This document shows, in pieces, positions 12,019 to 46,954 of a DNA stretch of 64,000 nucleotides. This DNA is from a bacterium (GTDB taxonomy: Bacteria; Hinthialibacterota; Hinthialibacteria; Hinthialibacterales; Hinthialibacteraceae): assembly GCA_963663405.2 (NCBI GenBank), contig CAXXSM010000150.1, positions 42,193 to 106,192 on the forward strand, in the 5' to 3' direction. The position numbers and the translations under genes were made by a program. The stretch's first letter is position 1. Each line of letters opens with the position of its first letter. The notes below the pieces were generated by a model. The model made no database searches and was not told where the DNA came from. It saw nothing but the letters and a program-made list of their open reading frames with translations.

Positions 12019-12074
12019 ATTCCATCCGTCCTTTACAAAGGAGATTCATTTCTATATTGTTGAGTTTACACAAT

Positions 12075-13335: not shown

Positions 13336-13347
13336 ACAACCAAGTGA

Positions 13348-14523: not shown

Positions 14524-14531
14524 TTATGGAA

Positions 14532-15242: not shown

Positions 15243-15257
15243 GAAATTACTCTCTCC

Positions 15258-15914
15258 CTATTTCTCCCGTGTTAGTTCCACGTCCATTGCCGCATCCCCC
15301 CAAATAGCGCGAAGCGAACGGCTGTCCTCCATCAGTGGGAATCCACAAAGGGCGCCCAACGCGTAGGTGTCTCCCGCATAAAGAGTCATAAAACGCGAGA
15401 GGAAAGCCACAACGAGCGCCGGTGAATGCGCGTAATCATTCGGAGCCTGTTCATCCGATAACGCCGGCGAAGATTCCACTCGCAAAGGAGTGTCACGCTC
15501 CCGTTCAATCCGCTCTAAGGGCATCAAATCCCCCAGCGTATGAAATCCCTCGATCCACTGCCCATAATAAACCGCGATTCCATGATCCCGAAGCCGAATC
15601 TGATGTTCCAGCCGCGTCAATTCATCAATCACGTAAGGGCTGTACAATCCGATCCACAACCGGCATCCAGCAATATATCGCCCCGCGTCTTCGATGGACA
15701 CGCCTTGGCAATCTGCCTTGAGTTCAATCGCCAAACCGGCGAATCCCATCACTTTTCCCGCAAACTTGGGAATACAGATCGACCCGGCGTTGTACGACGC
15801 GACATGCGGAGGACATAAATACGCCAGAGGAAAGCGGCTTTTCTTAATATCCCACGTTCGTATGGAAAAATCCGAATTTCCGACGACAAACCAAAATTCA
15901 CCATTCAGGGCCAT
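15258..15914 (-). CDS. Degenerate fumarylacetoacetate-hydrolase-like protein
   Basis: Weak FAH-fold traces (AGLAIEL...DAGRYIAG; VAFLSRFMTLYAGD); overlaps the upstream FAH gene. Confidence 0.5.
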   Translation of the reverse strand: MALNGEFWFVVGNSDFSIRTWDIKKSRFPLAYLCPPHVASYNAGSICIPKFAGKVMGFAGLAIELKADCQGVSIEDAGRYIAGCRLWIGLYSPYVIDELTRLEHQIRLRDHGIAVYYGQWIEGFHTLGDLMPLERIERERDTPLRVESSPALSDEQAPNDYAHSPALVVAFLSRFMTLYAGDTYALGALCGFPLMEDSRSLRAIWGDAAMDVELTREK

Positions 15915-20329: not shown

Positions 20330-20872
20330 ATGAAACAAAGCGCGTTCACTCTGATCGAGCTTCTCATCGTGGTAGCGATCATCGGAATCTTAGCGGCGAT
20401 CGCCGTTCCGAATTTCCTTGGCGCCCGCCTCCGCGCGCAAGTCGCCAAAGCGCATGCGGAAATGAATACATTCGTCACAGCGACGGAGATGTATCGTATG
20501 GATAATGGGGAGTATTTTCCTCATAACCACACCCCTTGGCAGAATAAATATCTGACAACACCTATCGCCTACGTTACCTCGGTACCTACCGATCCCTTTC
20601 AGAAAGGCCCGGGCCGAACGGAAGAACAATACTCATTTAATGAATACCATAGAGATCCCATCTGGTATCCCGACGGTACTCTCTGGTTGAATTATCACGA
20701 AAGACACCGTCAAAGCGAAGAAAATATGTCCCGCGCAGAACGGGGACGGCCTTGGGCATACGAACTATGGAGCGTCGGTCCCAATGGAATTGTAGACCAA
20801 CCGGCTTTTATCTATTATGAAATGACCAATGGACTTTCCAGCGATGGTATGATTGTCTGGGTTCGCCCCTGA
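20330..20872 (+). CDS. Prepilin-type N-terminal cleavage/methylation domain protein
   Basis: MKQSAFTLIELLIVVAIIGILAAIAVPNF; C-terminal SVGPNG...NGLSSDG. Confidence 0.9.
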   Translation: MKQSAFTLIELLIVVAIIGILAAIAVPNFLGARLRAQVAKAHAEMNTFVTATEMYRMDNGEYFPHNHTPWQNKYLTTPIAYVTSVPTDPFQKGPGRTEEQYSFNEYHRDPIWYPDGTLWLNYHERHRQSEENMSRAERGRPWAYELWSVGPNGIVDQPAFIYYEMTNGLSSDGMIVWVRP

Positions 20873-20929
20873 TTTGTTAAGAGCAAGTATTTCACAGGAT
20901 TACTGGGTAAGAAAAAGGAAAAGAAGTAG

Positions 20930-21574
20930 ATGAAACACCGTGGATTTACTCTAATTGAACTCCTGATTGTAGTGGCGATCATAGGCATCTTGGCGGCGAT
21001 CGCTGTGCCCAATTTTTTAAACGCCCAAGTCCGAGCGAAAGTGGCGCGGGCGCGGAGCGATCTGCGCAATCTCTGCGTAGCGCTCGATAGTTATCAACTC
21101 GATCGAAATCAATTCCCCTGGCCTCTCCTCGGCGGAAATACAATCAACGTAGTCTACGAACTCACTACGCCCGTATCCTATATCTCCAGCGTCGATTTGG
21201 AAGATCCTTTCGCCCCGAAAGAAATGATTGAATACATGCGGGATCAAGGCCAGAATGTCTTTGACAGCTATGTCTATGTGAATTATCGCGGGCGGTGGGG
21301 ACAAAGCGAATGCGCTGGACGGTATGGCGTACCCCTCTCCGATTGCCCACGAGGCTATGGGATGAAATCACTCGGTCCCGACGGAGAAAACACGGGGGGC
21401 GTCCACTGGCCACTCGAGATGAAACTCAAAGGGGGAGAAGTCACCCCCGGCAACGCCTTCGTCACCCCCGGTATGCACGCCAATGACCGGCTTTACAATC
21501 CCTCCAACGGCCTAAACAGCATCGGAGACATCATCCGCTTTGGTGGAGAATTGGCAGGATCACAGGGGGGGTGA
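20930..21574 (+). CDS. Prepilin-type N-terminal cleavage/methylation domain protein, paralogue
   Basis: MKHRGFTLIELLIVVAIIGILAAIAVPNF; SLGPDG...YNPSNGLNSIGDI. Confidence 0.9.
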   Translation: MKHRGFTLIELLIVVAIIGILAAIAVPNFLNAQVRAKVARARSDLRNLCVALDSYQLDRNQFPWPLLGGNTINVVYELTTPVSYISSVDLEDPFAPKEMIEYMRDQGQNVFDSYVYVNYRGRWGQSECAGRYGVPLSDCPRGYGMKSLGPDGENTGGVHWPLEMKLKGGEVTPGNAFVTPGMHANDRLYNPSNGLNSIGDIIRFGGELAGSQGG

Positions 21575-25017: not shown

Positions 25018-26022
25018 ATGAAATTCACAAACATTCTCAAATCCATAATTCTATCGATCCTGTTCACATATAGTTCCATAAATATATGTGCGCAGAATAT
25101 CAACACACCTGAAAACTTTCCCGGCCGGCTGTTTCGCGGTGCCATTGAAAAAATCATTGGCGTCGAACCCGGCGGATCATTCACCGCCGGACAGGCGGCG
25201 GAAGTCACACGAATCGATATTCCTTCTCTCTTTGATGAGACTGGATCTGTGACGGATTTAACTGGGCTGCAGTTTTTCCCTGCATTACGAAATTTCAACT
25301 GCTCGTCCAATCAAATCACGAGTATCGATCTCTCTCATAACACGGCGTTGGAAGTTCTACGCTGCAGTGGGAATCCATTAACGAATTTGGATCTCTCCCA
25401 CAACACAGCGTTAAAACGTCTTAACTGCAATGCGTGTCAATTAACCAATTTGGACGTCTCCCACAATACAGCATTAGATACTCTCCACTGTAAAATAAAT
25501 CATTTATCCAGCCTGGATGTTTCTAACAATGTCGCATTGGAGCGGTTTGACTGCAGTGAAAATCAATTAATCCATTTGAATGTAACTGGAGCCACTCCGT
25601 TGAGATTCCTCTTATGCTCCGAAAATCAATTATCCAGTTTGGATCTCTCTCAGAATACAGCCTTAAAAAGTCTGACGTGCGATACAAATCACTTAACCGT
25701 TTTGGATCTTTCGAACAATACGATCATGGCTGGAGTCTGGTGTTCATACAATCGGCTGACAAACATTGTAATCTCTGAAAGTGGCGCAATATCATTTTTA
25801 GACTGTTCGAACAATCATCTAACCAGCCTTTCCAGTTTCGTCTCCAATCCAAGTCTTGGACAAGATGACACGTTGATTGTCACAAATAACTACATTGGCT
25901 GCGCCGATCCAAACACTGCTCTCCATGATATCGAAGTTCTTAAAGAACGAATGGGAACCGGTTTTCGCTACGATCCCCAAAAAGAATGTGAAACCGGCGT
26001 AGAGGATTGGTCATTGCATTGA
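25018..26022 (+). CDS. Secreted single-module capped LRR protein (9 Cys-containing 21-aa repeats)
   Basis: RBS GGGGGAATC-ATG, signal peptide, NINTPENFP N-cap, LxxLxCxxNxLxxLDxSxNTA repeats, NNYIGC..YDPQKEC C-cap, ends TGVEDWSLH. Confidence 0.88.
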   Translation: MKFTNILKSIILSILFTYSSINICAQNINTPENFPGRLFRGAIEKIIGVEPGGSFTAGQAAEVTRIDIPSLFDETGSVTDLTGLQFFPALRNFNCSSNQITSIDLSHNTALEVLRCSGNPLTNLDLSHNTALKRLNCNACQLTNLDVSHNTALDTLHCKINHLSSLDVSNNVALERFDCSENQLIHLNVTGATPLRFLLCSENQLSSLDLSQNTALKSLTCDTNHLTVLDLSNNTIMAGVWCSYNRLTNIVISESGAISFLDCSNNHLTSLSSFVSNPSLGQDDTLIVTNNYIGCADPNTALHDIEVLKERMGTGFRYDPQKECETGVEDWSLH

Positions 26023-26516
26023 AAATAATAATTTCCTTTTTAGAAAAGAATTGTAAATAAACTGATAACAGAGGGAAATCATGTATCTCACAAGCATCTC
26101 TAAATTCACCGTCTCAGTCTTGTTTATTACAAGCCTATCGATCCCCACCTGGGCGCAGAATATCAACACACGGGAAAACTTTCCTGATCCAGAATTCCGC
26201 GCAGCTGTTGAAACGTTCATGAACGTCTCCGCGGGAGGTGAGTTTACCGCCGTGGAGGCGTCTTCGAAAACTAAAACGATGAAATGTTCTGGACAATATA
26301 AAAAAGCCTCTTCGCTATTTCATGTGGGTAGAGGGTAGAACCTCGAGAAGATTACATTCCAATTTTCCTCTGCCAAACAGATGGTTACGATCAACTTGTA
26401 GACGTTTCGATATCTGTTAAGCGACAAGTATTTTGCAGTAGGATTGCCCTCCATCGATCCGTTTGCGGGTCTGGATTTTATCGAAGAAAAAAGAACCATA
26501 TCTTTATGTGCCGCAT

Positions 26517-26742
26517 GCTTGTGGAGTCTGTGGTCAGGCGCCTCAATAATCTTTCTCATTCCCCCTAATCTTTCGCAGGTGGCTGTCCAAATCTTGTGGG
26601 CAAACCGGCAGGAACTTTCTCTTCTCACCCAGAGTATCGGCGGTTTGTCCATAAGATGGCAGAATCCACAAGCCCTCACTCGTTCGGATTACTGATCATG
26701 AATCGCAGACCGGAGAGACTCAGCCGGTTTCATCCGGTGTCT
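26517..26742 (+). ncRNA. Putative structured RNA within the IS, antisense to the transposase
   Basis: Nested stems 26517-30/26660-73 (13/14) and 26591-607/26641-57 (17 bp, 2 G-U), plus a hairpin at ~26707-26742; wobble pairs work only on the + strand. Confidence 0.35.
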
Positions 26743-26796
26743 TTTGCTTAGTTTGGCGGCTTGCCTGCAGAAACGGGAACGATTCAAGCCGTATTA

Positions 26797-28050
26797 CTAT
26801 TTCGTGTGGGGCGAGGGAAGAACCTTGGGAAGATTGAATTCCAACTTGCTTCCAATCAAATAGATGGTAGTGATTAAATTGTTGACGTTGCGATAGCCTC
26901 TCGCACGGGCCTTGGCGGCTTGGATCAGGCTATTCATCCCCTCCAACAGACCATTGTTGATTCGCGAAGTAAACCAACGCACCACACCAGCCCAGTGCTC
27001 CTTGATCGTTTTCGCGGCCTTGATCATAGGCTCAATCCGGCTGTGAGTCGCCCAATAATACCACTTTTTAAGAAACGATTCCCCCTCCTCCGGATCGTCG
27101 AACGAAAACACGTCTTGGAACACGGATCGCAGATGGTAGGCTTTCACCGTCTTCAATTTGCTCCCTCGTACATCTTGAAAAATTTCGTTCCGTTTCTTCT
27201 CTTGCTTGTCCGTGAGATTCCATTCATTCTTCAGCCAAATATACTTCGTCCCCTTCAATAATTCGGGATAAATCGCTTGGTCTTGTTTGCGCACTTCGTC
27301 CACAGCTTGATTGATAATCCTCATCAGGTGGTATTCATCAAATGTCATTTCGGCGGCCGGGAAATTGGCTTCAATCCCGGATTGAAACGCCTGGGACATA
27401 TCCAAACAAAATTCCTCCACCTGCTCCGCCTTTCCGTTATGCGTCTCTAAATCCTCTTTGAACGCCCCCACCGTTTGAGCGTCCTTTCCATCGGTGGCAA
27501 ACATCACGCTGCGCTCGTCCAAATCCATGAATACGCTGACATAATTGTGCCCTTTGGCCTTTGAGGTCTCATCCACCCCCACCGCCTTCACTCCCGAAAA
27601 ATCCTCCCTCTCTCGCGCGTCCATCACATAATGAGTCAGCACTCGCCAAATCAGCGTGTCATATTCTCCGACCACTCGGCTGATCGCATTGGCCGTCATC
27701 CCATTCTCCGCCAGTGCCATGACCAACGCTTCAAATAACAACGTAAATCCCGCCCCCGGACGGGCCCAGGGAAGATTCACTGTCTTGACTTTATGATTGG
27801 GACATTTCACACGAGGTTGCCGGGCGTGTAAATACGTCTCATACTGAAAGAAATTCAGATGCCTCCAAGTGCGTCGTTTCGTATCATGCACTCCACACAG
27901 GTTCCCGCATTCGGGACAGGGAAACAGACTCCCCTCGGGAAAGTCCAGCGTGAGGTGCAAGGTTTTTTCTTCCTCAGGAAACTCGGCCTGGACGACCTGC
28001 CATGGCTCACTCAAACCTAACGCTAACCGGAATAATTCTTGGTTCTTCAT
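26797..28050 (-). CDS. ISL3-family DDE transposase (intact)
   Basis: LFRLALGLSEPW, CPECG zinc finger, WRHLNFFQ, VGVDETS, LDMS, FDEYH, NGLLEGMNSLIQAAKARARGYRN. Confidence 0.95.
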   Translation of the reverse strand: MKNQELFRLALGLSEPWQVVQAEFPEEEKTLHLTLDFPEGSLFPCPECGNLCGVHDTKRRTWRHLNFFQYETYLHARQPRVKCPNHKVKTVNLPWARPGAGFTLLFEALVMALAENGMTANAISRVVGEYDTLIWRVLTHYVMDAREREDFSGVKAVGVDETSKAKGHNYVSVFMDLDERSVMFATDGKDAQTVGAFKEDLETHNGKAEQVEEFCLDMSQAFQSGIEANFPAAEMTFDEYHLMRIINQAVDEVRKQDQAIYPELLKGTKYIWLKNEWNLTDKQEKKRNEIFQDVRGSKLKTVKAYHLRSVFQDVFSFDDPEEGESFLKKWYYWATHSRIEPMIKAAKTIKEHWAGVVRWFTSRINNGLLEGMNSLIQAAKARARGYRNVNNLITTIYLIGSKLEFNLPKVLPSPHTK

Positions 28051-28060
28051 TCTCTTCCTT

Positions 28061-28078
28061 CTCTCTCTCTCTCTCTCT
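28061..28078. repeat. (CT)9/(AG)9 microsatellite just upstream of the transposase RBS
   Basis: CTCTCTCTCTCTCTCTCT, 10 nt from the start codon. Confidence 0.9.
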
Positions 28079-31000
28079 TGGGATTGGGATCTTTGCCTTT
28101 AGCCTGGGCGGAGGATCGGACCTTGCGGGGACGCGAACTGAGTGCTGACCAAGAAGACTGTCGAAGGACGGTCTAGCACCGCCCTTCTTGTTAGTTTATC
28201 TCGTCGGGATTGGTACGTAAGCGATATATCTTCGGGAGGATGGAGGAAAGCCTTCCCCAAATCTACCCACTCGATTCAGCGAAGAGCCATAAAAAACAGA
28301 AAATCAAAGAGACAACAGGATTGCATTTCTTCCCAAATATCACATCGCTCGATTGCTCGTGGAATCAGTTAAAAAAACTGGATCTCTCCCACAATACGGC
28401 GTTGCACTCACTCAAGTGTAACTGCAATCAATTGATCGAACTGAATCTCTCTCACAATACAGATCTAGAGGAACTTGACAGTTCGGGCAATACTTTAAAA
28501 AACCTGGATGTCTCCAACCTTACCAAATTATCCTCACTCACTTGCAGTAACAATCAAATCACCGTTCTGGATGTTTCTCAAAACACAGCCTTGAAACGGC
28601 TCTACTGCTGGGGAAATCAATTGACCCACCTGGACGTCACCCACAACACCGCGTTGGAATCGCTCTACTGTTTGAGCAATCAATTGACCAGCCTGGATGT
28701 CTCCAACGCCATCGAGCTGCAATCTCTCGACTGTCGGGAAAACCTATTGACAAGCCTTTCCACGCTCACCGCCAATGAAGGACTTAGTCAAGGAGACTAT
28801 GTCAACGTGCAAAATAACTATATCGGATGCGCCGATCCAGACACCACCGCGGCTGACATCCAAATTCTACTCGCGCGAATCGGCCAATACGATAAAAACA
28901 GCCGGCCACGCACAGGCTTCATTTTCGCGCCACAGAAAGCATGCGCAACAGAGACCCCGGATTCACAGAATATAAATACACCAATCTTTTTCCCCGATCC
29001 AAATTTCCGCGAGGCGGTCGAGGAATTCATGGATGTGGAACATAATAGAACATTCACGGCGGCGGAAGCCTCAATTAAAGATGGAACGCTGGATTGTTTG
29101 TTACTTGACATAAAAGATACAACCGGTCTAGAGTTTTTTCATGCTTTAACCGGGCTTAATTGCGCAGCCAACCAATTGACGCGCCTGGATGTTTCTAATA
29201 ATACAGCACTAACCGGCTTGATTTGCACTCAAAATCAATTAACAAGCCTCGATGTTAGTAACAATCCCAAGTTGGGACTGCTCCTTTGCTATGAAAACGA
29301 ATTAACAAGTTTGGATGTCACTCACAATCCCATGTTGGAATCACTTCGCTGTGATTTTAATCAACTCACCAGTCTAGATGTTTCTAATAATCTTGTATTG
29401 ACCACCCTCTGGTGCAGAGGCAATCAAATAGCGGATCTAGATGTCACTAACAACACTGCATTGTACTCTTTCTACTGCAGTGGAAATGAATTGACCAGCC
29501 TTTCAAGTTTTGTCGCCAACGAAGGGCTTGACGCCGGAGATTTTGTTAATGTCAGAGACAATTATATTGGCTGCATAGACCCTGACGCAGCCGCAAGAGA
29601 TATAGAAATATTAAAAGAACGTATTGGACAATTGTTTTTTTACGAATCCCAAAAAGACTGCGCAACCGCTCCCCCGGATTTACGGAACATCAACACATCG
29701 GAAAACTTCCCCGATCCAAACTTCCGCGCGGCGGTCGAAGAATTCATGGGTGTAGAATCCGGCGGTGGATTTACAGCGGCGGACGCTTCGATCAAAGAAG
29801 GAACACTGGATTGTTCCAACCGTGGAATCGAAGACTTGACCGGTATCAAACTCTTCCCACAATTAACTGGACTTATCTGCAAAGCCAATCAACTGCGAGA
29901 CCTAGATCTTTCCTACAACATCGCTTTAGAGTATCTCAACTGCTCCGCGAATCAACTCACCAGTTTGGATCTTTCCAATAACACGATGTTGAAGCGCTTC
30001 GATTGCAGCGCCAATCAACTCACCAATCTAGATATTCACAACAATACTGCCTTGGAATGGTTGGATTGCCATCAAAACCAATTAAACAGCCTCTCTAGTT
30101 TTACCGCCAACGAAGGACTTGGAACGGGCGACTATGTCAACGTACAAAACAATAGCATTGGTTGCGTGTACCCAGAGTCCACTGAGGCAAATATACAAAT
30201 TTTAAAAGAACGCATTGGTGAATCATTTTTCTATGAATCACAGAATGTGTGTGAAACGGATCCAAATAAAATACTAAACATTAATACTCCAGAAAACTTT
30301 CCCGATCCAAATTTCCGCGCGGCTGTCGAAGACTTCATGGGTGTGGGATCCGGTGGAGAATTTACAGCGGCGGACGCCTCGATCAAAGAAGGAACACTGG
30401 ATTGCGAGAATCGCGGCATTCAAGACATGACGGGTTTAGAACGTTTCCCTGCTATTCCCGGACTCGTTTGTGGAAGGAATTCTATTTCCAACCTTGATGT
30501 CTCTTATAATACCTCTTTAACTATTCTGATATGTGATTCACTTGATAATCTGACAAATATCGATCTCTCGCAGAACACCGCATTAGAGTCTCTCAACTGC
30601 GGTTTCAATGATTTAACCAGCCTTGACGTTTCACATAATACCGCTTTGGTCAATCTTGAATGCTATTATAATCAAATATCCAGTCTGGATGTCTCGCGCA
30701 ACGCCACATTGGAATCTCTCGTTTGTTATAACAACAAATTAACCAGCCTGGATGTTTCTAACAATCCCGGTTTGCATGAACTCGGTTGTGATCATAATCG
30801 ATTATCCAGCCTTGATGTCACACACAACACCGTACTGACTAAACTCACTTGTGGAGACAATGAAATACCAGATTTAGATATCTCCAAGAATCCTATGTTA
30901 GAATATCTCTCCTGCTCGTATAACCGGCTGACCAGTCTTTCCAGTTTTGTCGAAAACGAAGGTCTTGGCCCAAAAGATTGGGTAACTGTAAGCAACAATT

Positions 31001-33217
31001 ACATCGGTTGCATTGATCCAGAAACCGCACAGCAACACATTCAAATTCTCAAAGAACGAATCGGAGAAAGATTTTCATACGAACCGCAGAAAGACTGTAA
31101 CACAATGGACTTAGATTCTTTCAATATCAACACTCCGGAGAACTTCCCCGATCCAAAATTCCGAATAATCGTAGAGACTTTTATGGGTGTGAATCACGAA
31201 GGGGAATTCACAGCGGAGGAAGCCGCTAGTAAAGATGGTAAACTGGATTTTTCTCTTCGTGGTATCTATGATATAACCGGAATTGAATATTTCACTGGAC
31301 TGACAAGACTCGATTGCGGCGACAATCCATTGACTCGTTTGGATATCTCAAACAATACTGCTTTGATTCATCTAAGATGCGCCAGGACTCAATTAATCAA
31401 CCTGGATGTCTCCAACAATCTTGCTCTAGAGTCACTCTATTGCGATGGCAATCAATTAACCAGCCTGGACATCTCCAACAACACCGCTTTGACTACTCTT
31501 TTATGCAACAGTAATCTATTAACTACTCTGGATATCTCCAATAATCCGGCCTTAGAGACTCTCCATTGTGATGACAATCAATTAACAATTCTGGACATTT
31601 CAAAGAATTCCGCGGTAAAAACTCTCTACTGCGGTGATAATGCATTGACAGTCATTGATCTCTCAAACAATCCCGCGTTGGTGTATCTTCACTGTGAAGA
31701 CAGCCAGTTAACCGCCTTGGATCTCTCGAACAATCCCGAGTTGGAATCTCTCTACTGCGCTGGCAATCTATTATCCAGCCTGGATACCTCCAGCAATCCA
31801 GCGTTGATGTATCTACACTGTAACCGCAATCAAATATCCAAACTGGATGTATCTCAGAACACCGCGTTGGTATCTCTTAACTGTTATTGGAATCGATTAA
31901 CCAACGTTTCCAGTTTCACCACTAACGAAGGCCTTGGAACAGAAGATTTTGTCGATATTCGAAACAACTATATTGGTTGCGTGGATCCAAACGTATCGAA
32001 TAATGATATGCAAATTCTTATCGATAGAATTGGAGACAGTTTTAAATATGAACCACAATTCGATTGCAACACAGCAGAACCTGACTTAGCGAATATCAAC
32101 ACGCCGGATAACTTTCCCGATCCGAATTTTCGAAGCGTGGTAGAGGACATTATTGACGTACAACATGGTGAGCCATTTACTGCGGCACAGGCGGCTCAAG
32201 TAAAAAGTATGGAAATTGCCAGTAGTGAATATTATAGGCTTAATATCAATGATTTTTCTGGAATTCACTTTTTCACTGGCTTGGAGTATCTCAACTGCGC
32301 AAATAATAACTTAACTAGCCTGGATCTCTCATCTAACACTGCTTTAGTAATACTTCACTGCGTTTCGAATCAATTAACCAGTTTGGATCTTTCTCACAAC
32401 ACCGCGCTAAAGTCACTCGACTGCGATCACAATCAGCAATTAACCAATCTGGATATCTCTCAGAACACGGCTTTGGAATTCCTTGATTGCGATATGAACT
32501 TATTGACTAGTCTTGATCTTTCTCAAAATACTGCTTTGAAACATCTCCAATGTGAGTTCAATCAATTAAAAAACTTAAATCTTACGAATAATACTGCTTT
32601 ACAATATATCAAATGCGGGGGCAATCAATTAACTAGCCTGGACGTCTCTAACACAACTGCTCTAGAGCACCTTTCTTGCAGCAACAATCAATTGACAACT
32701 TTGAATGTTTCCAATTGTCCTGGTTTAATTGAACTATGGTGCCAAAGTAATCTATTAACCAGCCTGGATATCACTAAGAATCCTGCTTTAATTGAACTCG
32801 CGTGCAGGTACAATCAATTGACAAGCTTGAATGTCTCTCACAATATCGCTTTATCTGAATTCTCTTGCTCGAACAATCAATTAATCAATTTGGATATTTC
32901 TCAAAACACTGCGCTAGTTAGGCTCTACTGCGCTTGGAATCAATTAACCAATCTTGATGTTTCCAATAACACCGCATTGGAATATATTAACTGTTCAGAC
33001 AATCAATTGACAAGCCTTTCCAGTTTTGTCGCCAACGAAGGTCTTGGATCAGGAGACGCAGTGGAAGTGTACAACAATTACATTGGTTGCATAGATCCAG
33101 ACGCAGCCACAAGAGATATAGAAATTCTTAAAGAGCGAATAGGAAGAAGATTTTATTATGAATTCCAGAAGGATTGTGAAACGATGCCAACGAATTAATT
33201 TCCCATCAAGAAGAAAG

Positions 33218-33241
33218 AACCGCATAAAAAATGCGCGGTTT
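33218..33241. terminator. Possible terminator between convergent LRR and lptD genes
   Basis: AACCGCATAAAAAATGCGCGGTTT imperfect hairpin. Confidence 0.4.
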
Positions 33242-33261
33242 CTAGTTTTATAAAACGTCAA

Positions 33262-35670
33262 TTACCGAAACACATTAACCGGCTGATTCCGCATCCCCTT
33301 TTTGTTCCCGAATCCTGTAAAACTGAAGCCGATGTTTATGGATAGATCGTCATCCAGGGTTGGGTGATCGCGGTAGACGATGTGGAATGTGGTGAAGAAA
33401 TCGTACATGTCGCGGGATACACCGAGGGTGGTGCGGCGGATCTTCTCATCATCCAGATCGAACCAGATGCCGGAAAAAACCTGCCATTTATTGGAGACGT
33501 CGTACAACATCTGAATCGCCGCATCCTCTTGTTCGTCCCGTTCGGTCAGTGGATTCAGGTTGGGGAATAGATACGTATTGTATCCCATCGTGAAATGCAG
33601 GCGGGAAAGCGGGCTGATCTGCGCGTAATAGTACGAAGAACGAACCTCGCTGTCGTCCACATCGTATCGCAAAGTATTCCCTACAGAGAACCACGGAAAC
33701 GGGTAAATATCAAATTCTTCGATCCAGTCGGAATAGCGGTAATCAGTATGGTTGGCGAAATCATCCGAGAACTCAAAATTATCGTACAACAGATTATCGT
33801 CCGGCATATAGTCATACGCGAGACCCGTCGTAAACCGGAAAAAATCACTCGAAACGCCACCCTGGTCTTTCCCTTGGATGCGCGTCCGCAACAGCGCCGA
33901 TACGCGGTGCATCTGATACCGCACCTCATCCGTAGGATCGATATACGGAAATCGGATATCCCGCGCGCCGGGGATCACTGAATTCATGACTTCTTCTTCC
34001 AGCGCGTTGTCCGGATGGTAGTACTCATAGCCAAACACAGGCTCCACGACGATACGCATCCGATCGTACCGGTCTAAAAACGGCTCAAATTCAGCCGTCG
34101 AGCGGTTTGAGATTTCCAGCCCCCCCTGGGGCATGGAGCGGGTGACCGAATCAAAGTTGTATGTGTTTTGCCGGTCATCCAAAGTACGCTCAGGATCGCT
34201 GTATTCCGTGCCCCGATACCCCACCCAGGGTTTAAACGTCCAGCGGGCGGGTAAAAGAATCGGGTAGGCGAACTTCAGATTCGCATCGTACCGGTCAACC
34301 TCATCGATAAAGAGCGTATTCTGGATAATCTGATCCTGAATCCCATTCTTGATGGGAATCGTGTATCCTTCTTCCCGGCGATAGCGTCCGAAATCCAGCT
34401 GCAGGTTTGTGTATACATTCGAATCGAAAAGATTGGTCGGATAATGTTCAAAATGAACCTGCGGACGCCGTTCCACATAGGGCAGCCCGTTGTAGTAAAA
34501 CGAATCGAACCGCTGCGCGGCGGTCAGGCGCATGCTCTGATCGTCCCAACGTTTCACCAAATCGATATGCGAGACGGAATCACGCTGGATCGCGTCCGGA
34601 TCACTTTCCCGCACCCGTTCGGGGCCGTGATAATCCCACAGATATTCCGAATCGGATAGTTTATGCGCCCGGCCGGATATACGCATATCGTAGGGCAGAT
34701 CCTGCGCGTATTCACCAGATACAATGTATCGGTCTTCATCTTCATAAATGTTATCGTTGTCCGCCCCATCCTGCGCGATATGCCACCCATAGATCTCCCC
34801 TTTCGGGCTGTACTCTCCCCCCTTCACATCGAACTGAAATTTTCCGCCGGCGCCGACTCCTACATCCGTAAAATAGTCTCCATAGAAATCAAATTCATAT
34901 TCACCCGGTTCACCCGGCACGATATTCAACCGGTTGAACGCCGCGTACCCAAGGCGGGAATAATGGGCGAAATCGAAATAGTACGCGACTTTGCTCTGTC
35001 CCAAGGATTGTGTAAAAAATGGAAGATAAAACATCGGGTACGATTGGACGTTCATAACAATGTTATTCGCCCAAAACCGGACATTCGGAACTACCACGAC
35101 TTTATCAAAACCGAAGTAATACGTAGGAACCGGCCAATCAGAACCGGTCAATTGTCCTTTCCGGACCGTATATTCAGGAATCATTTCCGCTTCGGTGGCG
35201 CCGGCGGGTCGCTTAGCGGGACGCCGTTTGTACGTAACCGAATCTCCTTTGAAGAAAACGCCCTCCGCGAGTTCGGCTTCCTTTACCTCTTCGAGTATCC
35301 CTTGGTTCTTTTCGATGTAAAAGACTAGATGTTCGCCCCGCAAAATCGATCCCTGATCCCACAACCGGACATCGCCGGAAGCGTGAATTGTCTGTTCGAT
35401 CTGGTTATAAATAATTGTGTCAGCGGTGATAGATCGATCCCCAATGATGACGGATGGGCGTTCTTCTCCTTTAGGACGAAGCATAATCGTTTCTGTGGGG
35501 ATATCGTATTCATAATCCCCACGCAGGATTTCAAAAGGAGTGGAACTCTTTTCCTGGGAAAAGCCGTTCCCCACGATACCAAAAAAGAGAAGGGATAGAA
35601 AACAGATAACCTTGATATTCATAACGTAGACGAAACGGAAATTAACCGGATATTTCATAGTCAACCCCAT
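33262..35670 (-). CDS. lptD: LPS-assembly outer-membrane protein LptD-like (likely start 35622)
   Basis: Signal peptide, OstA-like N-domain (ITADTIIYNQ...ASGDVRL), YPMFYLPFF, LSDSEYLWDY, aromatic-rich beta-barrel, ~790 aa. Confidence 0.75.
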   Translation of the reverse strand: MGLTMKYPVNFRFVYVMNIKVICFLSLLFFGIVGNGFSQEKSSTPFEILRGDYEYDIPTETIMLRPKGEERPSVIIGDRSITADTIIYNQIEQTIHASGDVRLWDQGSILRGEHLVFYIEKNQGILEEVKEAELAEGVFFKGDSVTYKRRPAKRPAGATEAEMIPEYTVRKGQLTGSDWPVPTYYFGFDKVVVVPNVRFWANNIVMNVQSYPMFYLPFFTQSLGQSKVAYYFDFAHYSRLGYAAFNRLNIVPGEPGEYEFDFYGDYFTDVGVGAGGKFQFDVKGGEYSPKGEIYGWHIAQDGADNDNIYEDEDRYIVSGEYAQDLPYDMRISGRAHKLSDSEYLWDYHGPERVRESDPDAIQRDSVSHIDLVKRWDDQSMRLTAAQRFDSFYYNGLPYVERRPQVHFEHYPTNLFDSNVYTNLQLDFGRYRREEGYTIPIKNGIQDQIIQNTLFIDEVDRYDANLKFAYPILLPARWTFKPWVGYRGTEYSDPERTLDDRQNTYNFDSVTRSMPQGGLEISNRSTAEFEPFLDRYDRMRIVVEPVFGYEYYHPDNALEEEVMNSVIPGARDIRFPYIDPTDEVRYQMHRVSALLRTRIQGKDQGGVSSDFFRFTTGLAYDYMPDDNLLYDNFEFSDDFANHTDYRYSDWIEEFDIYPFPWFSVGNTLRYDVDDSEVRSSYYYAQISPLSRLHFTMGYNTYLFPNLNPLTERDEQEDAAIQMLYDVSNKWQVFSGIWFDLDDEKIRRTTLGVSRDMYDFFTTFHIVYRDHPTLDDDLSINIGFSFTGFGNKKGMRNQPVNVFR

Positions 35671-35678
35671 GTTTAAAC

Positions 35679-35773
35679 ATATAAACCATCATGATCGAGA
35701 TCCCAACGTGCAAATGAAAATGAGTTGTGGGAGCAATCACTAATGAGAAAACATTAGAAACTCATTTTCATAT
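35679..35773 (-). repeat. ~95-bp dispersed intergenic element, copy A
   Basis: ATGAAAATGAGTT..AACTCATTTTCAT stem plus TTGCA..GATCTCGATCATGATGGTTTATAT tail; homologous to 46767-46860 and 60239-60332. Confidence 0.85.
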
Positions 35774-35823
35774 GAATCCACATTTTATGTCAAATTAATA
35801 GCGGCGCCTATGTGATGAGTCCA

Positions 35824-36294
35824 TTATTTCTGATTTTTTGGTCCAGCGGCGAACCGTTCCAACACCCATTCAGGAATCCGGCACGGAGCGACTCGTCCAT
35901 TGTTCTCTTTGCAACAAGCCATTTTCGTCACTCCACTCGCGATGCGTAATGGCTGGTTCTCATCATCCCGGCGGTTTTCACATAGAATCTCATAGTAAAA
36001 AGTCAAATACGATCGGCCCTTCTCCGGAATCCAAGTTTTGATCTGCAACGCATCCCCCAGCCGCGCGGGAGAGAGATAATCCAATTCGGCCCGGCGGCAG
36101 ACAAAAAGGCAATTCTTTTCAAGCATATCCACTAGAGTAAGATCGAATTCTTCCACATAGAATCCTCGCGCCCGTTCAAACATTTCGAGATAACGCGCAT
36201 AATAAACCACACCTCCCGCGTCGGTGTCACCATAACAAACTCGGTAAGGATACGCGCAAACAGGAAAATCGATGTCTTCAATCCGGACGCTCAT
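35824..36294 (-). CDS. YbgC/FadM-family acyl-CoA thioesterase
   Basis: YRVCYGDTDAGGVVYYARYLEMFERAR, LDYLSPARLGD. Confidence 0.88.
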   Translation of the reverse strand: MSVRIEDIDFPVCAYPYRVCYGDTDAGGVVYYARYLEMFERARGFYVEEFDLTLVDMLEKNCLFVCRRAELDYLSPARLGDALQIKTWIPEKGRSYLTFYYEILCENRRDDENQPLRIASGVTKMACCKENNGRVAPCRIPEWVLERFAAGPKNQK

Positions 36295-36313
36295 AAAATG
36301 CCCTTCTCAATTG

Positions 36314-38155
36314 ATGGCTTTATTGCAGGCCGGGATTCTAATCCGCTGCCTATTCCTTCCTTTAATCGGTTTTGAACAGGACTTTCACTTCTTCGCCTCC
36401 TGGGCGACCCATCTTGCAGAGAATAGCGTCATAACGATTTACGACAAGCCGGAAGAACTGAGCGTGGGATTCATCAATTACCCGCCCTTCTACCTCTACA
36501 TCCTATCCGGCCTCGCCCGCACATACCGGTGGTTTTTTACCGGCCCTTTGGAGACACGCGTCTTTCTCTGCATGATAAAATCCGTCACAATCCTTTTCGA
36601 AATATTGACCGCGTTTCTCCTTTACCGCTTTCTTCTGCGCAAGACGGATGAACGAACCGCACTATACGGATTCGGTTTCTATTTTCTTAATCCAGCCATT
36701 TTCTACGTCAGCGTCTATTATGGCCAAGTAGACGCGATATTCAGCGCCTTTCTCTTATTAACCACTATTTCTCTGATCGATGAAAAGTACTTTTGGGGCG
36801 GATTTTGGGCCGCTTGCTCGTTGTTGATGAAAATACAATCGATCCCATTCATGCCCCTCTTTTTCTTCTGGCCGATCGCGCGGGGACAATACAAGAAGAT
36901 TATTCCATTCGTTTGTGGATTCGCGATCGCCTCCTTTGTGATTCTAGCGCCGTTTCTGTTCAGCGGACGGCTGGAGAAAGTGTATCATTATAGCGTCGAA
37001 GCGAGTGTAGAATGGGGAAAATACCTATCTGTCGGAGCCTTCAATCTTTGGTATCTACACGCCGATCCATACACACTCGATAAGCGGATTTGGGGATGGC
37101 TTTTCGGAGCCGATGGGATACTAACCGCCTATCCGTTCATACACTATTTAACATACAGAAACCTAGGCGTAGGGCTATTCGGCATCGCGTTTCTCGGGAT
37201 GCTGACCGCGGTATGGAAGCGTCCAGATCGAGAGGGACTCTTGAAAGCCGCCGCATTTATCGCGTTGGCGTTTTATATGCTTCCGACGAAAGTCCACGAG
37301 CGCTATTTATTCCCCTTCTTCGTTTTCTATGCGCCCCTGGCTTTGACCTGCCTGACGAGGCGGTTCCTGTTCATCGGATTCAGCGCCTCTTATTTACTGA
37401 ATCTCATAGTAATTTGCCCCCTCATTGGCGAAGTACATTACGTTGAAGAGATCGATTCTACCCTCGGAGCCGCCGCAGCCGCTTGGAATGTGGTTTTATT
37501 CACGGCGTTTATCGTGTATGAATATGTAATCCCATTTCGATCTCAGGAAAAATCATTCCCCTTGCTCGCGAAAACAATCGGATTGTCGATCGCCTGCGTC
37601 TCGATCGTTCTATATCTCCGGGCCGATGCGAGAACCGATGATCCATATACCCTCTATCTCAGCCGGATAACGCCTATTTCGTGTATACAAGATTGGCCGC
37701 CAATTCCACCGGAATTAAGCGATCCACCCCCGGATTATCAACTTCGCATGGATCTATCCACGGACGAGAATCAATTACGGATCGGCGATCATCTCTACCG
37801 GTATGGGATCGGCGCGCACGCCAATTCACGCATCGAATACGACATTCCCCGGTATTACACCATTTTCGAAACTTGGGTGGGAGTAGATTACGAAACAATG
37901 GAGAATTTCAAACTGTACCCGGACCGGGCGACTGTTTCCTTTGAAGTCTGGGTGAATGGAGTCAAACTGGCGGAAACACCCTTAATGATCCCCACATCAC
38001 CTCCTAGGAAAATCTCAGTGCGTCTTCCCCGGAGCCAAGAAACCAACCGGTTGACGTTAATTGTGAGAAATGGAGAAGATGGTTCCGCATCTGATCATGC
38101 GGACTGGGCGCTGGCGCGAGTAATACGAACTTTTCTACCCCCGGCGGAGAGATGA
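36314..38155 (+). CDS. GT-C-fold membrane glycosyltransferase fused to NPCBM/NEW2 carbohydrate-binding module (start uncertain)
   Basis: QDFHFFASWA, NYPPFYLY, LNPA..Y.S.YYGQVD, TKVHERYLFP; C-terminal YGIGAHANSRIEY...VGVD...DG..SDHADWALAR. Confidence 0.8.
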   Translation: MALLQAGILIRCLFLPLIGFEQDFHFFASWATHLAENSVITIYDKPEELSVGFINYPPFYLYILSGLARTYRWFFTGPLETRVFLCMIKSVTILFEILTAFLLYRFLLRKTDERTALYGFGFYFLNPAIFYVSVYYGQVDAIFSAFLLLTTISLIDEKYFWGGFWAACSLLMKIQSIPFMPLFFFWPIARGQYKKIIPFVCGFAIASFVILAPFLFSGRLEKVYHYSVEASVEWGKYLSVGAFNLWYLHADPYTLDKRIWGWLFGADGILTAYPFIHYLTYRNLGVGLFGIAFLGMLTAVWKRPDREGLLKAAAFIALAFYMLPTKVHERYLFPFFVFYAPLALTCLTRRFLFIGFSASYLLNLIVICPLIGEVHYVEEIDSTLGAAAAAWNVVLFTAFIVYEYVIPFRSQEKSFPLLAKTIGLSIACVSIVLYLRADARTDDPYTLYLSRITPISCIQDWPPIPPELSDPPPDYQLRMDLSTDENQLRIGDHLYRYGIGAHANSRIEYDIPRYYTIFETWVGVDYETMENFKLYPDRATVSFEVWVNGVKLAETPLMIPTSPPRKISVRLPRSQETNRLTLIVRNGEDGSASDHADWALARVIRTFLPPAER

Positions 38156-38334
38156 TCAATAACTGATAATACAGCGCTTTCTGATTCATTGCCACGAATC
38201 CAACGTCGATCCAGCGGAGATGATTTCTTTTTCCGTGCAAGCCGGAATCAAGGAATTGATTCGCTTAAAATAAAACATTCAGAGGTTAGTTAGCGGGAAA
38301 CGCTGTTCCTATCAATTCAAAATCGACCTTTTTC

Positions 38335-39078
38335 TCAATGCAAGGACCAATTCGATACTGCCGTTTCACATTCATTCTGTGGTTCGTATATAAACCCGAA
38401 GAATCCTAGGGGAACAGCTTTTCCTAATCGCTCTGTAAGAATTTGAAAATCACTCATCGCGGCATTTGGATCAACACAACCAATGAAATTGTTTCGAACA
38501 TCAACATAGTCTCCTTGTCCAAGACCTTCGTTGGCTACAAAACTTGAAAGGCTGGTTAATTGATTTGCTTGACACAAAATACGCACTAAAGCGGGATTCT
38601 TGGAGACATCTAAGCTGGTTAATTGATTTTCACTGCAAACGAGATTTTCCAAAGCGGGATTGTTAGAGATATCTAAACTAGTTAAAGAATTGGCATTGCA
38701 GGCGAGTATAGTTAAAGCGGGATTGTTGGAGGCATCTAGGCTGGTTAATTGATTGATACCACAAAAGAGTACAGTTAAAGCAGTGTTTTTGGAGACATCC
38801 AGATTGGTTAATTGATTGCCTTCGCAGTAGAGTTCTGTTAAAGCGGGGAAAAGTGCAATCCCGGTCATCTTTCCGATACCGCGCCTAGAACAATCCAATG
38901 TTCCATCTTTTATCGCTGCTTCAGCCGCCGTGAATTCCCCCCCTGGCTCCACGCCCATAAATTCCGCAACCGCCGCTCGGAAGTTCGGATCAGGAAAGTT
39001 CTCCGGTGTGTTGATATTCTGGGAAAATGTGTTTGAGGAAATAAAAACGATGATGAATGCAGAGATGAAGTATTTCAT
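38335..39078 (-). CDS. Secreted single-module capped LRR protein (5 repeats)
   Basis: Signal peptide, NINTPENFPDPNFRAAV N-cap, same C-cap, ends TAVSNWSLH. Confidence 0.9.
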   Translation of the reverse strand: MKYFISAFIIVFISSNTFSQNINTPENFPDPNFRAAVAEFMGVEPGGEFTAAEAAIKDGTLDCSRRGIGKMTGIALFPALTELYCEGNQLTNLDVSKNTALTVLFCGINQLTSLDASNNPALTILACNANSLTSLDISNNPALENLVCSENQLTSLDVSKNPALVRILCQANQLTSLSSFVANEGLGQGDYVDVRNNFIGCVDPNAAMSDFQILTERLGKAVPLGFFGFIYEPQNECETAVSNWSLH

Positions 39079-39344
39079 GATTTTTCTCCGATCAATCGAT
39101 AGATAATTCATGTATCATACAACGATTCCTATTTAGCGTGAATCTCTATTCCCATTAAATAGGATTAAATCTCTCAAAAACCTAACTAGTCATTCGACCT
39201 TTGGATCTCAAGAAAAACGCTGATAAACTGATAATGCCATACAGAATCGCGAAGAAATCACTATTGAACGGGATTGTAAGAAAGTGAAATGAGCAATGAA
39301 AGGTAATGCAAGGTTGATCGAATCCGTTTAACATCAATCAGTAA

Positions 39345-46766: not shown

Positions 46767-46860
46767 ATATGAAAATGAATTTCAGAGACTGGCTCATTCA
46801 AGGTTTCTACCGCAACTCATTTTCATTTGCAATTGTGATCTCAATCATGATGGTTTATAT
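46767..46860 (+). repeat. ~95-bp dispersed intergenic element, copy B
   Basis: ATGAAAATGAATT..AACTCATTTTCAT-TTGCAATTGTGATCTCAATCATGATGGTTTATAT, upstream of uvrA. Confidence 0.85.
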
Positions 46861-46954
46861 GAATAACGCTGGTCCAATTGAATCAAAAAGCGATCGGCGT
46901 ATACTTCTAGCATTCCCGAATCGGCGCGGTCACTCTTACGCAGGAACGTTTATT

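Follow-up and report, generated by a model that had tools for sequence, protein, structure and literature searches.

The window, a stretch of 64,000 nucleotides from an uncultured bacterium, carries three members of a large gene family, g1, g2 and g3, whose products are capped LRR modules that vary mainly on one face. With a probability of roughly 70%, the approximately 45 genes of this family in the genome form a germline set of putative binding modules, exported by the Sec pathway, that diversified without programmed recombination. A module is a self-contained LRR solenoid that comprises an internalin-type helical N-cap, a series of 21-aa Cys-ladder repeats (n = 3–22) and a C-cap. Ordinary duplication of repeats, blocks and genes would make new copies, five concave residues would then be replaced rapidly, and purifying selection would set in afterwards. 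The diversity is fixed in the genome, as dozens of ordinary, fully encoded genes.

Both the translations and the module parse place eight cap-LRRn-cap modules in the three window genes (Table 1), where the preliminary description had put them. When all LxxLxCxxNxL units are counted, including the one that merges with the C-cap, g1 contains nine 21-aa repeats, the successive modules of g2 contain 7, 6, 4, 8, 10 and 12, and g3 contains five; the recount returned the earlier numbers, which differ in each module. The LRR signal is far above chance (g2 against Pfam LRR_4, E 3.7e-66). The g1 protein runs from a predicted signal peptide ending in ..CAQ through the N-cap, the repeats and a two-Cys C-cap to a tail ending in ..VEDWSLH, and g3 is ordered in the same way, from a signal peptide ending in ..TFSQ to a tail ending in ..VSNWSLH. 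The g2 protein ends in ..CETMPTN, where the W-x-L-H tail is absent. A hairpin-like sequence lies just past the g2 stop codon.

Upon inspection, g2 is not one intact gene: a 1983-bp ISL3 element interrupts the six-module reading frame, a split that had first been overlooked. The element has terminal inverted repeats (26308–26332 and 28262–28286), both of its junctions with g2 are spanned by Logan contigs, and the part of g2 beyond it (28297–33198) continues in the same reading frame as the 5′ fragment. The genome holds 14 full-length copies (blastn), seven of which, including the one in g2, are 100% identical. The insertion is recent and, because it splits the gene, g2 is inactivated in this genome. 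The proposed six-head string gene thus does encode six modules, but it is now broken by an insertion sequence with an 8-bp duplication.

Table 1. Features of the window discussed in the text.
Feature	Position	Strand	Evidence
g1, single module, 334 aa	25018..26022	+	translation, module parse; Pfam LRR_4 E 5.7e-16
g2 5′ fragment severed by the insertion sequence: 75 codons for the signal peptide and module 1 N-cap	26081..26305	+	sequence
Left 8-bp target-site duplication ATAAAAAA	26298..26305	.	sequence
ISL3-family insertion sequence, 1983 bp	26306..28288	-	terminal inverted repeats, genome blastn
ISL3 transposase, 417 aa	26797..28050	-	Pfam DDE_Tnp_ISL3 E 2.6e-70, HTH_Tnp_ISL3, Zn_ribbon_ISL3
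Right 8-bp target-site duplication ATAAAAAA	28289..28296	.	sequence
g2 module 1, rest: N-cap end, 7 LRRs, C-cap with 11-aa insertion	28297..28968	+	module parse
g2 module 2: N-cap, 6 LRRs, C-cap	28969..29685	+	module parse, alignment
g2 module 3: N-cap, 4 LRRs, C-cap	29686..30276	+	module parse, alignment
g2 module 4: N-cap, 8 LRRs (22 aa in one), C-cap	30277..31122	+	module parse, alignment
g2 module 5: N-cap, 10 LRRs, C-cap	31123..32091	+	module parse, alignment
g2 module 6: N-cap, 12 LRRs (22 aa in one), C-cap	32092..33198	+	module parse, alignment
g3, single module, 258 aa	38335..39111	-	translation; AF2 pLDDT 95.2; InlJ E 5.3e-60

The caps are conserved, as had been claimed: the residues that never vary across seven aligned modules include N1, I2, N3, T4, F8, P9, F13 and R14 of the N-cap, and N177, I179, G180, C181, Q214 and C217 of the C-cap. 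Two cysteines of the C-cap (C26 and C55 in cap numbering) are present in each of 19 sequences compared and probably form a disulfide. In a Pfam scan of the window proteins neither cap matched LRRNT or LRRCT, and the two-Cys C-cap, 57–68 aa long, matches no Pfam or NCBIfam model and only 152 of 1.84 billion cluster representatives. It is a lineage-restricted structure that combines one irregular final repeat with a helix and a strand. This type of end cap is what is new here; the internalin-J-like LRR module kind is already known. In their N-cap and repeats the modules share homology with Listeria internalin J (g3 against PDB 3bz5, phmmer E 5.3e-60), in an alignment that spans the N-cap motif FPDxNF and the repeats. 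Foldseek likewise returned 3bz5 as the best match, then InlB, InlA and repebody structures, so that both searches uphold the earlier link to internalin J.

The AF2 model of g3, built from a 29-sequence alignment (pLDDT 95.2, pTM 0.90), has strands at residues 62–64, 83–85, 104–106, 125–127 and 146–148, that is, at repeat positions 3–5. Each cap adds one strand, and the final seven residues are disordered. The predicted ligand-binding face is the parallel β-sheet of positions 3–5 together with the flanking positions 2, 7 and 8. When the window's 49 internal units of 21 aa are compared, entropy is 3.0–3.8 bits at positions 2, 3, 5, 7 and 8, compared with 0.14–0.81 bits at scaffold positions 1, 4, 6, 9, 11, 14, 15, 17 and 19 and 1.6–2.6 bits at all others, in line with a nearly fixed scaffold and variation around the Cys. 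Genome-wide (1935 concave residues from 387 units, relative to long ORFs), the concave positions are enriched in Y (3.0-fold), W (2.2-fold), N (2.2-fold), H (1.7-fold), S (1.65-fold), E (1.55-fold) and D (1.5-fold), whereas R is depleted (0.81-fold); of the Y/W/H/D/R richness first described, all but the arginine stands. Entropy, model and composition agree that variability is concentrated on the β-strand face.

The genome is a 170-contig bin of 8.4 Mb, 82% complete, with a depth of about 2.8 in Logan contigs. In it, an N-cap profile found 58 domains in 44 ORFs and a C-cap profile 38 domains in 28 ORFs, a census that bears out the claim of a large, diversified family; 32 modules are complete, with 3–22 repeats each. 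Most family ORFs have signal-peptide-like N-termini that end in Q immediately before NINT, which suggests that the modules are Sec-exported. Of 40 other genomes searched with g3, 22 gave matches at E ≤ 1e-10, including 17 of the 19 that belong to the same taxonomic family, and multi-module ORFs occur in three of the seven relatives' genomes from which loci were fetched; monomers and strings, the two forms of deployment proposed earlier, are thus found both here and in relatives. Hits at E ≤ 0.001 numbered 6595, mostly InlJ-like LRR surface proteins of Bacteroidota, but both caps are present together in only 15 of the 123 stored proteins; most of these 15 are from this genome or its kin.

Some modules stand alone and bear a short C-terminal tag, T/S-x-V-x-D/N-W-x-L-Y/H/F, which recurs in more than a hundred further ORFs of this genome. 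Among 5550 ORFs of at least 200 aa, 138 end in W-x-[LVIF]-[HYF], versus five for this pattern at an internal site; carriers outside the family include CBM9, LamG, CotH+LTD and FG-GAP proteins. The tag probably serves in sorting or anchoring. g2 is without it. Where modules are arranged head to tail, 8-aa linkers join them, and such strings may confer avidity or several specificities. Domains fused to family modules comprise dockerin, FGE-sulfatase and C-type lectin. The dockerins, and a tag common to many members, enzymes and carbohydrate-binding modules, would suit a structural or scaffolding role in an assembly at the cell surface (cellulosome-like, or docking associated with an S-layer) instead of the binding of diverse external ligands. 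We regard such a role as quite unlikely: dockerin turned up in only three of 49 family ORFs (C47/C99 and C6; six members scanned), 365 of 387 concave heptads genome-wide are distinct, and the face, like a paratope, is rich in Y, W and N. Distinct, paratope-like strands therefore argue for many partners and not for one docking site.

How the strands became different was read from intragenic comparisons of repeats in five younger paralogues, all outside the window. Their ratio of concave dN to scaffold dS is 7.45 (C149), 3.57 (C138), 2.78 (C92), 2.40 (C27) and 2.36 (C55_6507), compared with 0.17–0.46 at the other positions of the same genes, a pattern that fits duplication followed by positive selection. 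The C149 repeats point the same way, with a near-identical 42-nt scaffold throughout and a scrambled xxLxCxx segment. In 14 ORFs of relatives, synonymous sites are at or near saturation (pS 0.60–0.86) and ω exceeds 1 in none; g3 has too few units. The per-site dN/dS check suggested in the preliminary description thus gave concave ratios of 2.4–7.5 in the five outside paralogues but met saturation in g1 and g2 (pS 0.66–0.77). Codon changes between C47 and C99, which are 97.5% identical, are of the kind expected from later purifying selection on concave codons: 0 of 90 concave codons changed, versus 35 of 288 other LRR codons. These two sequences possibly represent two strains instead of two paralogues.

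The value of ω could be raised if gene conversion in short tracts keeps the scaffolds alike. If frequent conversion confined to the scaffold had acted beneath old variable strands, the high rate ratio would reflect a reset of the synonymous clock instead of positive selection. Within C149, scaffold identity (0.92) slightly exceeds that between young-clade genes (0.82–0.89), and uniformity is slightly lower at codons L1, L4 and C6 than at codons 9–21, as such concerted evolution would predict. We nevertheless consider it unlikely. L4 and C6 lie inside the variable segment, and their same-codon fraction is 0.71–0.83 in young genes versus 0.36–0.58 in old genes, which dates the variable segments as young as well. 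Moreover, scaffold identity between genes approximates N-cap identity (0.86 and 0.85 for C92 versus C138), and donor copies of variable segments were not found elsewhere in the genome. The repeat order of near-identical arrays such as that of C149 is possibly misassembled in this low-depth bin.

The preliminary description had instead likened the family to recombinationally diversified VLRs, and this part of it found no support. Recombination of capped cassettes within or between loci, programmed as in VLRs or shufflons and guided by homology in the caps or in the conserved scaffold of 42 nt, would yield new binders or antigenic variants within a population, and several features are reminiscent of it: the cap-LRRn-cap layout with n differing between all modules, near-identical scaffolds in some arrays (0.92 nucleotide identity in C149), internal block duplications of eight, four and two repeats in C149, C55 and C96, and single-cap ORF pieces. 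These pieces, however, adjoin partner pieces or a stop or frameshift, and the genome census contained no silent capless cassette array. A signal-peptide-like leader lies ahead of every gene piece that starts with an N-cap. Window repeats are at most 78% identical in nucleotides (mean 58%), caps are 60–70% identical, and identity of at least 85% over at least 60 nt occurs in only 10 of 4200 family HSPs. None of the 387 concave heptads is common to unrelated genes, the 20 that recur being confined to whole-gene duplicates or local tandem copies, and between genes LRR scaffold divergence follows N-cap divergence. No invertase, recombinase or reverse transcriptase was found near the window genes; the mobile-DNA enzyme closest to them is the one encoded by the element that breaks g2, a transposase. 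Sequencing-run contigs showed no credible alternative joints; those listed are short-sided and paralogue-derived. Programmed recombination is therefore very unlikely.

We give almost no credence to a diversity-generating retroelement that mutagenizes concave codons. Hypervariation limited to a few codons per repeat amid fixed adjacent nucleotides, and the A-rich codons AAT, TAT and AAC in the family consensus at variable positions, would be its expected traces. Yet the genome has only two RVT_1 genes (contigs C77 and C100), neither on a contig with a family gene, and no invariant template copy of an array was found in it; arrays also reach about 1.4 kb, far above the roughly 100–200 nt of known retroelement variable regions.

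The family finds its closest parallel in Listeria monocytogenes internalin J (3bz5), whose role is of the adhesin type. Both share the N-cap FPDxNF...LDC...I.D.TGIE and 21-residue repeats in which Cys replaces the sixth-position hydrophobic residue to form a Cys ladder, and the internalin multigene family likewise contains paralogues differing in repeat number and concave residues. Unlike internalin J, the window proteins lack an Ig-like inter-repeat domain and an LPXTG anchor and have the two-Cys cap instead; up to six complete capped modules share a polypeptide, and the host belongs to an uncultured lineage in which the signal-peptide context is of the Gram-negative type. Matches to NCBIfam internalin_J are partial, at 101–197 bits, far under its cut-off of 1700. 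For P. gingivalis InlJ, one report describes binding to Candida Als3 (PMC5915736). Bacteroidota InlJ-like surface proteins with T9SS sorting or BACON domains have the same 21-aa Cys-ladder repeat but not the full pair of N-cap and C-cap, and their T9SS C-terminal domain (PF18962) is absent from the window proteins by Pfam.

Slit-type proteins also string successive, individually capped LRR domains with differing repeat numbers along one secreted polypeptide, but they are animal proteins with cysteine-knot LRRNT/LRRCT caps and 24-aa repeats, and we know of no homology to the window family except the LRR fold. Lamprey and hagfish VLRs resemble it in the cap-LRRn-cap plan with variable n and the hypervariable, aromatic-rich concave face, and VLR-derived repebodies are among its Foldseek neighbours; in contrast to VLRs, no incomplete germline gene, silent cassette array or copy-choice assembly was found here, the caps are not LRRNT/LRRCT, and the diversity is genome-fixed. 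Large germline families whose exposed strand residues outpace synonymous sites after duplication also include plant NLR/RLP LRRs and Leishmania PSA, for which the literature describes birth-and-death evolution and positive selection on xxLxLxx (PMC2584048, PMC8226289, PMC3341825). The present family differs in being bacterial and secreted (predicted), in having no signalling domain, and in that selection was gauged from intragenic repeats and not from orthologue or allele sets. Against this background, it is probably an internalin-like germline family of adhesins or putative binders that varies mainly at the binding face.

The window holds three LRR genes, g1, g3 and a split g2, which share one modular architecture. 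Each module begins with an N-cap (NINTPENFPDPNFR..V..FMGV..GG.FTA..A...G.LDC....I.D.TGI..F), continues in 21-aa repeats and is closed by a C-cap (SLSSF.ANEGLG.GD.V.V.NNYIGC.DP......I.IL.ERIG..F.YE.QK.C). Our parse of the modules yielded 9 repeats in g1, 7, 6, 4, 8, 10 and 12 in g2 and 5 in g3, exactly as counted in the preliminary description; linkers of eight residues lead from the last cysteine of one g2 module to the next NINT. A cysteine occupies repeat position 6 in 48 of the 49 window repeats (entropy 0.14 bits; 0.17 bits across 387 repeats genome-wide), and both cysteines of the C-cap are kept in every one of 19 caps, so that they probably form a disulfide. Pfam recognizes only LRR_4 and LRR_EndoS in g1-g3, and neither Pfam nor NCBIfam has a model for the C-cap. 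When run against 1.84 billion cluster representatives, a C-cap profile matched 152 at E<=0.001, of which 47 reach E<=1e-10; in many cases the match covers only the first, LRR-like third of the cap, and several of the matches are long proteins bearing 2-6 full caps. Most family ORFs have signal-peptide-like N-termini with a glutamine immediately before NINT (..AFSQ/NINT, ..TAQ/NINT), which resemble the 'Q-rule' of pyroglutamate N-termini in Bacteroidota. In a FastTree of the caps from 32 modules (a short alignment, with no support values), g2 module 6 falls with g1, and g2 modules 3 and 4 fall together; these pairings suggest old local duplications, and we take them no further.

The closest known structure is Listeria internalin J (InlJ). 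A phmmer search of the PDB with g3 matched InlJ (3bz5) at E 5.3e-60, and the matches after it are weaker by at least five orders of magnitude relative to the search threshold. Residues 37-184 of g3 align with residues 13-159 of 3bz5, starting inside the N-cap (FPDPNF / FPDDNF, LDC, I.DMTGI) and continuing along the repeats; the PDB sequence matches stop near residue 190. As in an internalin domain, the N-cap lies directly ahead of the repeats, which are 21 residues long and carry a Cys ladder. We modeled g3 with AF2 on a 29-sequence family alignment (pLDDT 95.2, pTM 0.90), and used this model in place of one from the single sequence, which reached a pLDDT of 52 and gave unusable caps. In the alignment-based model, each repeat contributes a 3-residue strand (positions 3-5), the N-cap is helical with one strand (TLD), and the C-cap adds an extra strand, a 15-residue helix and a last strand; the 7 C-terminal residues are disordered. 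Foldseek again placed 3bz5 at the top, followed by InlB, InlA, InlC2 and VLR-derived repebodies. Past the repeats, where internalins have an Ig-like inter-repeat (IR) region, g1-g3 show no LRR_adjacent or other Pfam match, and the g3 model has the strand, helix and strand of the C-cap in its place. Partial scores against the NCBIfam internalin_J model (NF033187) were 101, 149.8 and 197.3 bits vs a curated cut-off of 1700.

The preliminary description took g2 as uninterrupted. Rather, g2 is split after its signal peptide and N-cap by an ISL3 element (see table). Every ISL3 feature tested (transposase, inverted repeats, duplication and copy number) is present: the terminal inverted repeats are imperfect (25 nt, 80% complementary), the duplication has the 8-bp length typical of ISL3, and 14 full-length copies occur in the genome, of which 7, the window copy among them, are 100% identical. 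Independent Logan contigs cross both junctions, and among the contigs of two runs (one sample, one study) none joins across the site of the element; an IS-free allele may nonetheless exist. Because the duplication is intact, the g2 reading frame is unchanged on either side and seven copies are identical, the insertion is recent. In this genome, the six-head g2 protein would thus be left without an export signal, judging from the sequence. We regard the element as active. The 119-aa ORF within it has an end that resembles the C-terminus of its transposase.

Among the neighbouring genes, the sugar biosynthesis cluster comprises two NeuB, two UDP-GlcNAc 2-epimerases, CTP_transf_3, Capsule_synth and several epimerases. 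UvrA is divided into two overlapping ORFs, either by a frameshift or by an assembly error.

Features of the window around the LRR genes (positions in nucleotides of the window)
Feature	Position	Strand	Remarks
Nonulosonic-acid and capsule-type sugar biosynthesis cluster	501-16942	-	
Two prepilin-type N-methylation-motif proteins	20330-21574		
g1	25018-26022	+	334 aa, LRR gene
g1 predicted signal peptide	25018-25095		
g1 C-terminal tag	25999-26019		
g2 signal peptide and N-cap	26081-26305	+	
g2 predicted signal peptide	26081-26158		
8-bp target duplication ATAAAAAA	26298-26305 and 28289-28296		both sides of ISL3 element
ISL3 element	26306-28288		1983 bp; DDE_Tnp_ISL3 transposase, terminal inverted repeats, target duplication, many copies
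119-aa ORF within ISL3 element	26320-26679	-	3' of transposase gene; no Pfam/NCBIfam match
ISL3 transposase	26797-28050	-	Pfam DDE_Tnp_ISL3, E 2.6e-70
802-aa ORF between g2 and g3	33262-35670	-	no Pfam/NCBIfam match
g3	38335-39111	-	258 aa, LRR gene
g3 C-terminal tag	38338-38358		
g3 predicted signal peptide	39019-39111		
UvrA, two overlapping ORFs	46769-47536 and 47505-49733		UvrA domains in each

The proposal of a large family was borne out by counting paralogues. We searched the six-frame ORFs of the genome (8.44 Mb in 170 contigs, 82% complete) with cap profiles from the window and found 58 N-cap domains in 44 ORFs and 38 C-cap domains in 28 ORFs, together 49 ORF pieces on 28 contigs; because the profiles overlook divergent caps, these counts are minima. 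Complete modules number 32 and have 3 to 22 repeats each. Some members are fusions, with a dockerin and an FGE-sulfatase or with a C-type lectin and a dockerin. Two such 2.9-kb LRR-dockerin-FGE-sulfatase genes on separate contigs (C47:39514-42408 and C99:35155-38055) are 97.5% identical across 2893 nt; they arose by a very recent duplication or come from two strains placed in one bin. A subfamily on contigs C27, C55 (three genes), C111 (two genes) and C149 has an additional domain of about 200 aa at the C-terminus, with the ending EF[VM]DLGIVGDC[QS]; a search with this pattern returned six ORFs (C27 and C149 with one each, C55 and C111 with two each), and the domain has no Pfam match in the two members scanned.

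At E<=1e-10, g3 matched 22 of the 40 other genomes searched. Sorted by kinship, it hit 17 of 19 genomes within the same family, 4 of 6 from two sister families and 1 of 9 from elsewhere in the class; none of the 6 more distant genomes had a match. ORFs with several modules were seen in three of the seven relatives whose loci were examined, with repeat counts of 6,5,6,6 and 5,6 (G021), 7,4,6 (G013) and 6,6,6 (G018). Public records bearing the family carry the labels 'Candidatus Omnitrophota bacterium', 'uncultured bacterium' or 'bacterium', to which we attach no weight. The formate-tetrahydrofolate ligase encoded in the window matched other genomes, of many phyla, at no more than 58% identity, and thus gives the organism no closer placement. 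Cys-ladder repeats as such are widespread (6595 of 7999 scored candidates at E<=0.001), mainly in Bacteroidota-type proteins with T9SS or BACON domains; of 123 such proteins retained, only 15 had both caps, and these came mostly from this genome or its near relatives. A protein atlas search returned nothing beyond generic LRR clusters, and the literature searched does not describe the family; in the available part of one preprint (10.1101/2023.11.21.568195), LRRs are mentioned only for Clostridia giant proteins.

Upon examining where the repeats differ, we found, as first proposed, that variability is concentrated on the concave positions. In the 49 window repeats, positions 2, 3, 5, 7 and 8 have entropies of 3.0-3.8 bits and the scaffold positions stay below 0.85 bits, and the 387 repeats genome-wide follow the same pattern. 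These positions fill and flank the β-strand of the g3 model (a mapping by DSSP register, not by measured solvent exposure), and in LRR proteins this strand lines the concave face. They had been described as rich in Y, W, H, D and R; genome-wide, Y (3.0x), W, N, H, S, E and D are enriched and R is not. Because every LRR family has variable x positions, this pattern alone proves little, and the real question is how the variation arose.

One answer, that of the preliminary description, is recombination. The window repeats and caps are too divergent for this: the 49 repeats have a mean nucleotide identity of 58% (maximum 78%), neighbours at 60% are barely more alike than others, and the caps are 60-70% identical. 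Genome-wide, there are 4200 family HSPs, of which only 10 have an identity of 85% or more over at least 60 nt. They comprise the whole-gene pair C47/C99, a tandem pair on C102, internal block duplications of 8, 4 and 2 repeats in C149, C55 and C96, and some short scaffold matches. Few concave heptads (xxLxCxx) recur: 365 of 387 are unique, and the 20 recurrent ones all lie within the C47/C99, C102 and C149/C55/C96 duplicates. Between genes, scaffold identity equals N-cap identity (0.86 vs 0.85, 0.80 vs 0.83, 0.72 vs 0.72), which indicates that the repeats have not been homogenised beyond gene age. No recombinase was found near the window LRR genes.

Two specific machineries fare no better. A target of a diversity-generating retroelement (DGR) is rejected for lack of an adjacent reverse transcriptase and of a template repeat: the genome has only two RVT_1 genes, on contigs without a family gene (C77 and C100), and no near-identical template copy of the arrays. 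As for VLR-type assembly, the genome census shows no capless or silent cassette array; where a family ORF starts with an N-cap, a leader peptide in most cases precedes it, and fragments adjoin their partner pieces. Pfam finds no LRRNT/LRRCT cysteine-knot caps in g1-g3. Contigs matching the window (two runs of one sample, neither of them RNA, probably the source sample, at a depth of ~2.8) contain no credible alternative joint, those listed having sides of 21-43 nt from paralogous repeats, and argue weakly against alternative arrangements.

Part of the pattern fits duplication followed by selection. A younger clade (C149, C55, C92, C138 and C27, with g3 at its edge) has a 42-nt scaffold (NQLTSLDVSNNTAL) that is nearly identical among repeats, silent sites included, while the xxLxCxx codons are scrambled. 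With scaffold synonymous divergence as the clock, concave dN/dS in five genes of this clade outside the window, whose near-identical repeats may be misordered in the genome bin, is 7.45 (C149), 3.57 (C138), 2.78 (C92), 2.40 (C27) and 2.36 (C55_6507), and 0.17-0.46 at the other positions. This signal bears out one part of the preliminary description. An old set of cassettes with homogenised scaffolds might mimic this signal. The L4 and C6 codons within the variable segments keep the identity of young genes (0.75-0.83 vs 0.36-0.58 in old genes), which argues that the segments are young as well. Short-tract conversion is a possible source of the high concave dN/dS. Once set, the concave face appears to be conserved: in C47/C99, the most recent gene pair, which may be two strains and not paralogues, changes fell in 0 of 90 concave codons vs 35 of 288 other LRR codons. 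In the window, dN/dS is uninformative: synonymous sites in g1 and g2 have reached saturation (pS 0.66-0.77), and the repeats of g3 are too few. The 14 ORFs from relatives are at or near saturation, with omega above 1 in none.

The C-termini of g1 and g3 read ..V.(D/N)WSLH; g2 lacks this tag. A W-x-[LVIF]-[HYF] C-terminus ends 138 of the 5550 ORFs of at least 200 aa in the genome, vs 5 in an internal control, with the logo [TVS]-[PSA]-V-x-[DN]-W-x-L-[YFH]-COOH. Its carriers include CBM9, LamG, CotH+LTD and FG-GAP proteins and 15 LRR family members, and it recurs in loci of two relatives (L036 and L037). In the AF2 model of g3 the tag is disordered, and neither Pfam nor NCBIfam has a model that matches it; it may act as a signal for sorting or anchoring that is specific to the lineage. 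Known routes were considered as well. LPXTG sorting is rejected, as the sole regex match, NPLTN, falls within a g1 LRR. T9SS sorting is rejected because the Por/T9SS sorting domain PF18962, present in many database matches to the family repeat, is absent from g1-g3 and the six further members scanned.

These observations suggest how the family probably works. The modules are predicted to be exported, with the concave sheet as a putative binding site, and new specificities would arise when repeats or genes duplicate and five residues in each repeat are then rapidly replaced under selection. A module may stand alone, form part of a string that provides avidity or several specificities, or act as the targeting domain of another extracellular protein. 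Taken further, this would be a bacterial germline repertoire of surface LRR 'paratopes', produced by duplication and diversifying selection, directed at many external targets and delivered by the W-x-L-Y sorting signal; we give this reading about one chance in four. Dozens of such paratopes would recognise, for example, prey, partner cells, particles or phages; selection would act strongly on five residues of the concave face in each repeat, much as it does in plant immune receptors; and the W-x-L-Y signal would be a previously undescribed one, common to more than 100 other exported proteins. The shared tag may mark an unrecognised protein-sorting route of the lineage. Modules that are small and confidently predicted, such as g3 (mature length 227 aa, pLDDT 95), might be of use as natural scaffolds for binders.

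With VLRs, the family shares only the cap-LRRn-cap layout and the variable concave face; it lacks their silent cassettes and LRRNT/LRRCT caps and shows no sign of their assembly. Adaptive VLR-like assembly in bacteria, the claim that had looked exceptional, is therefore not what the finding shows. The kinship with internalins is closer, as the InlJ N-cap and Cys-ladder repeat are present here, and by analogy the family may work like an internalin-type adhesin family; unlike internalins, it has neither an IR domain nor an LPXTG anchor and scores below the NCBIfam cut-off. The InlJ Cys-ladder scaffold now extends to an uncultured lineage with large genomes, where it is combined with a new, compact C-cap, probably of the disulfide type. 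Also new is the chain of several complete capped domains in g2-type proteins, which recalls the tandem capped domains of Slit. Finally, some paralogues are among the clearer bacterial cases of concave change far outpacing silent sites after repeat duplication, an evolutionary mode similar to that of plant LRR receptors and Leishmania PSA, as the available parts of the sources describe them.
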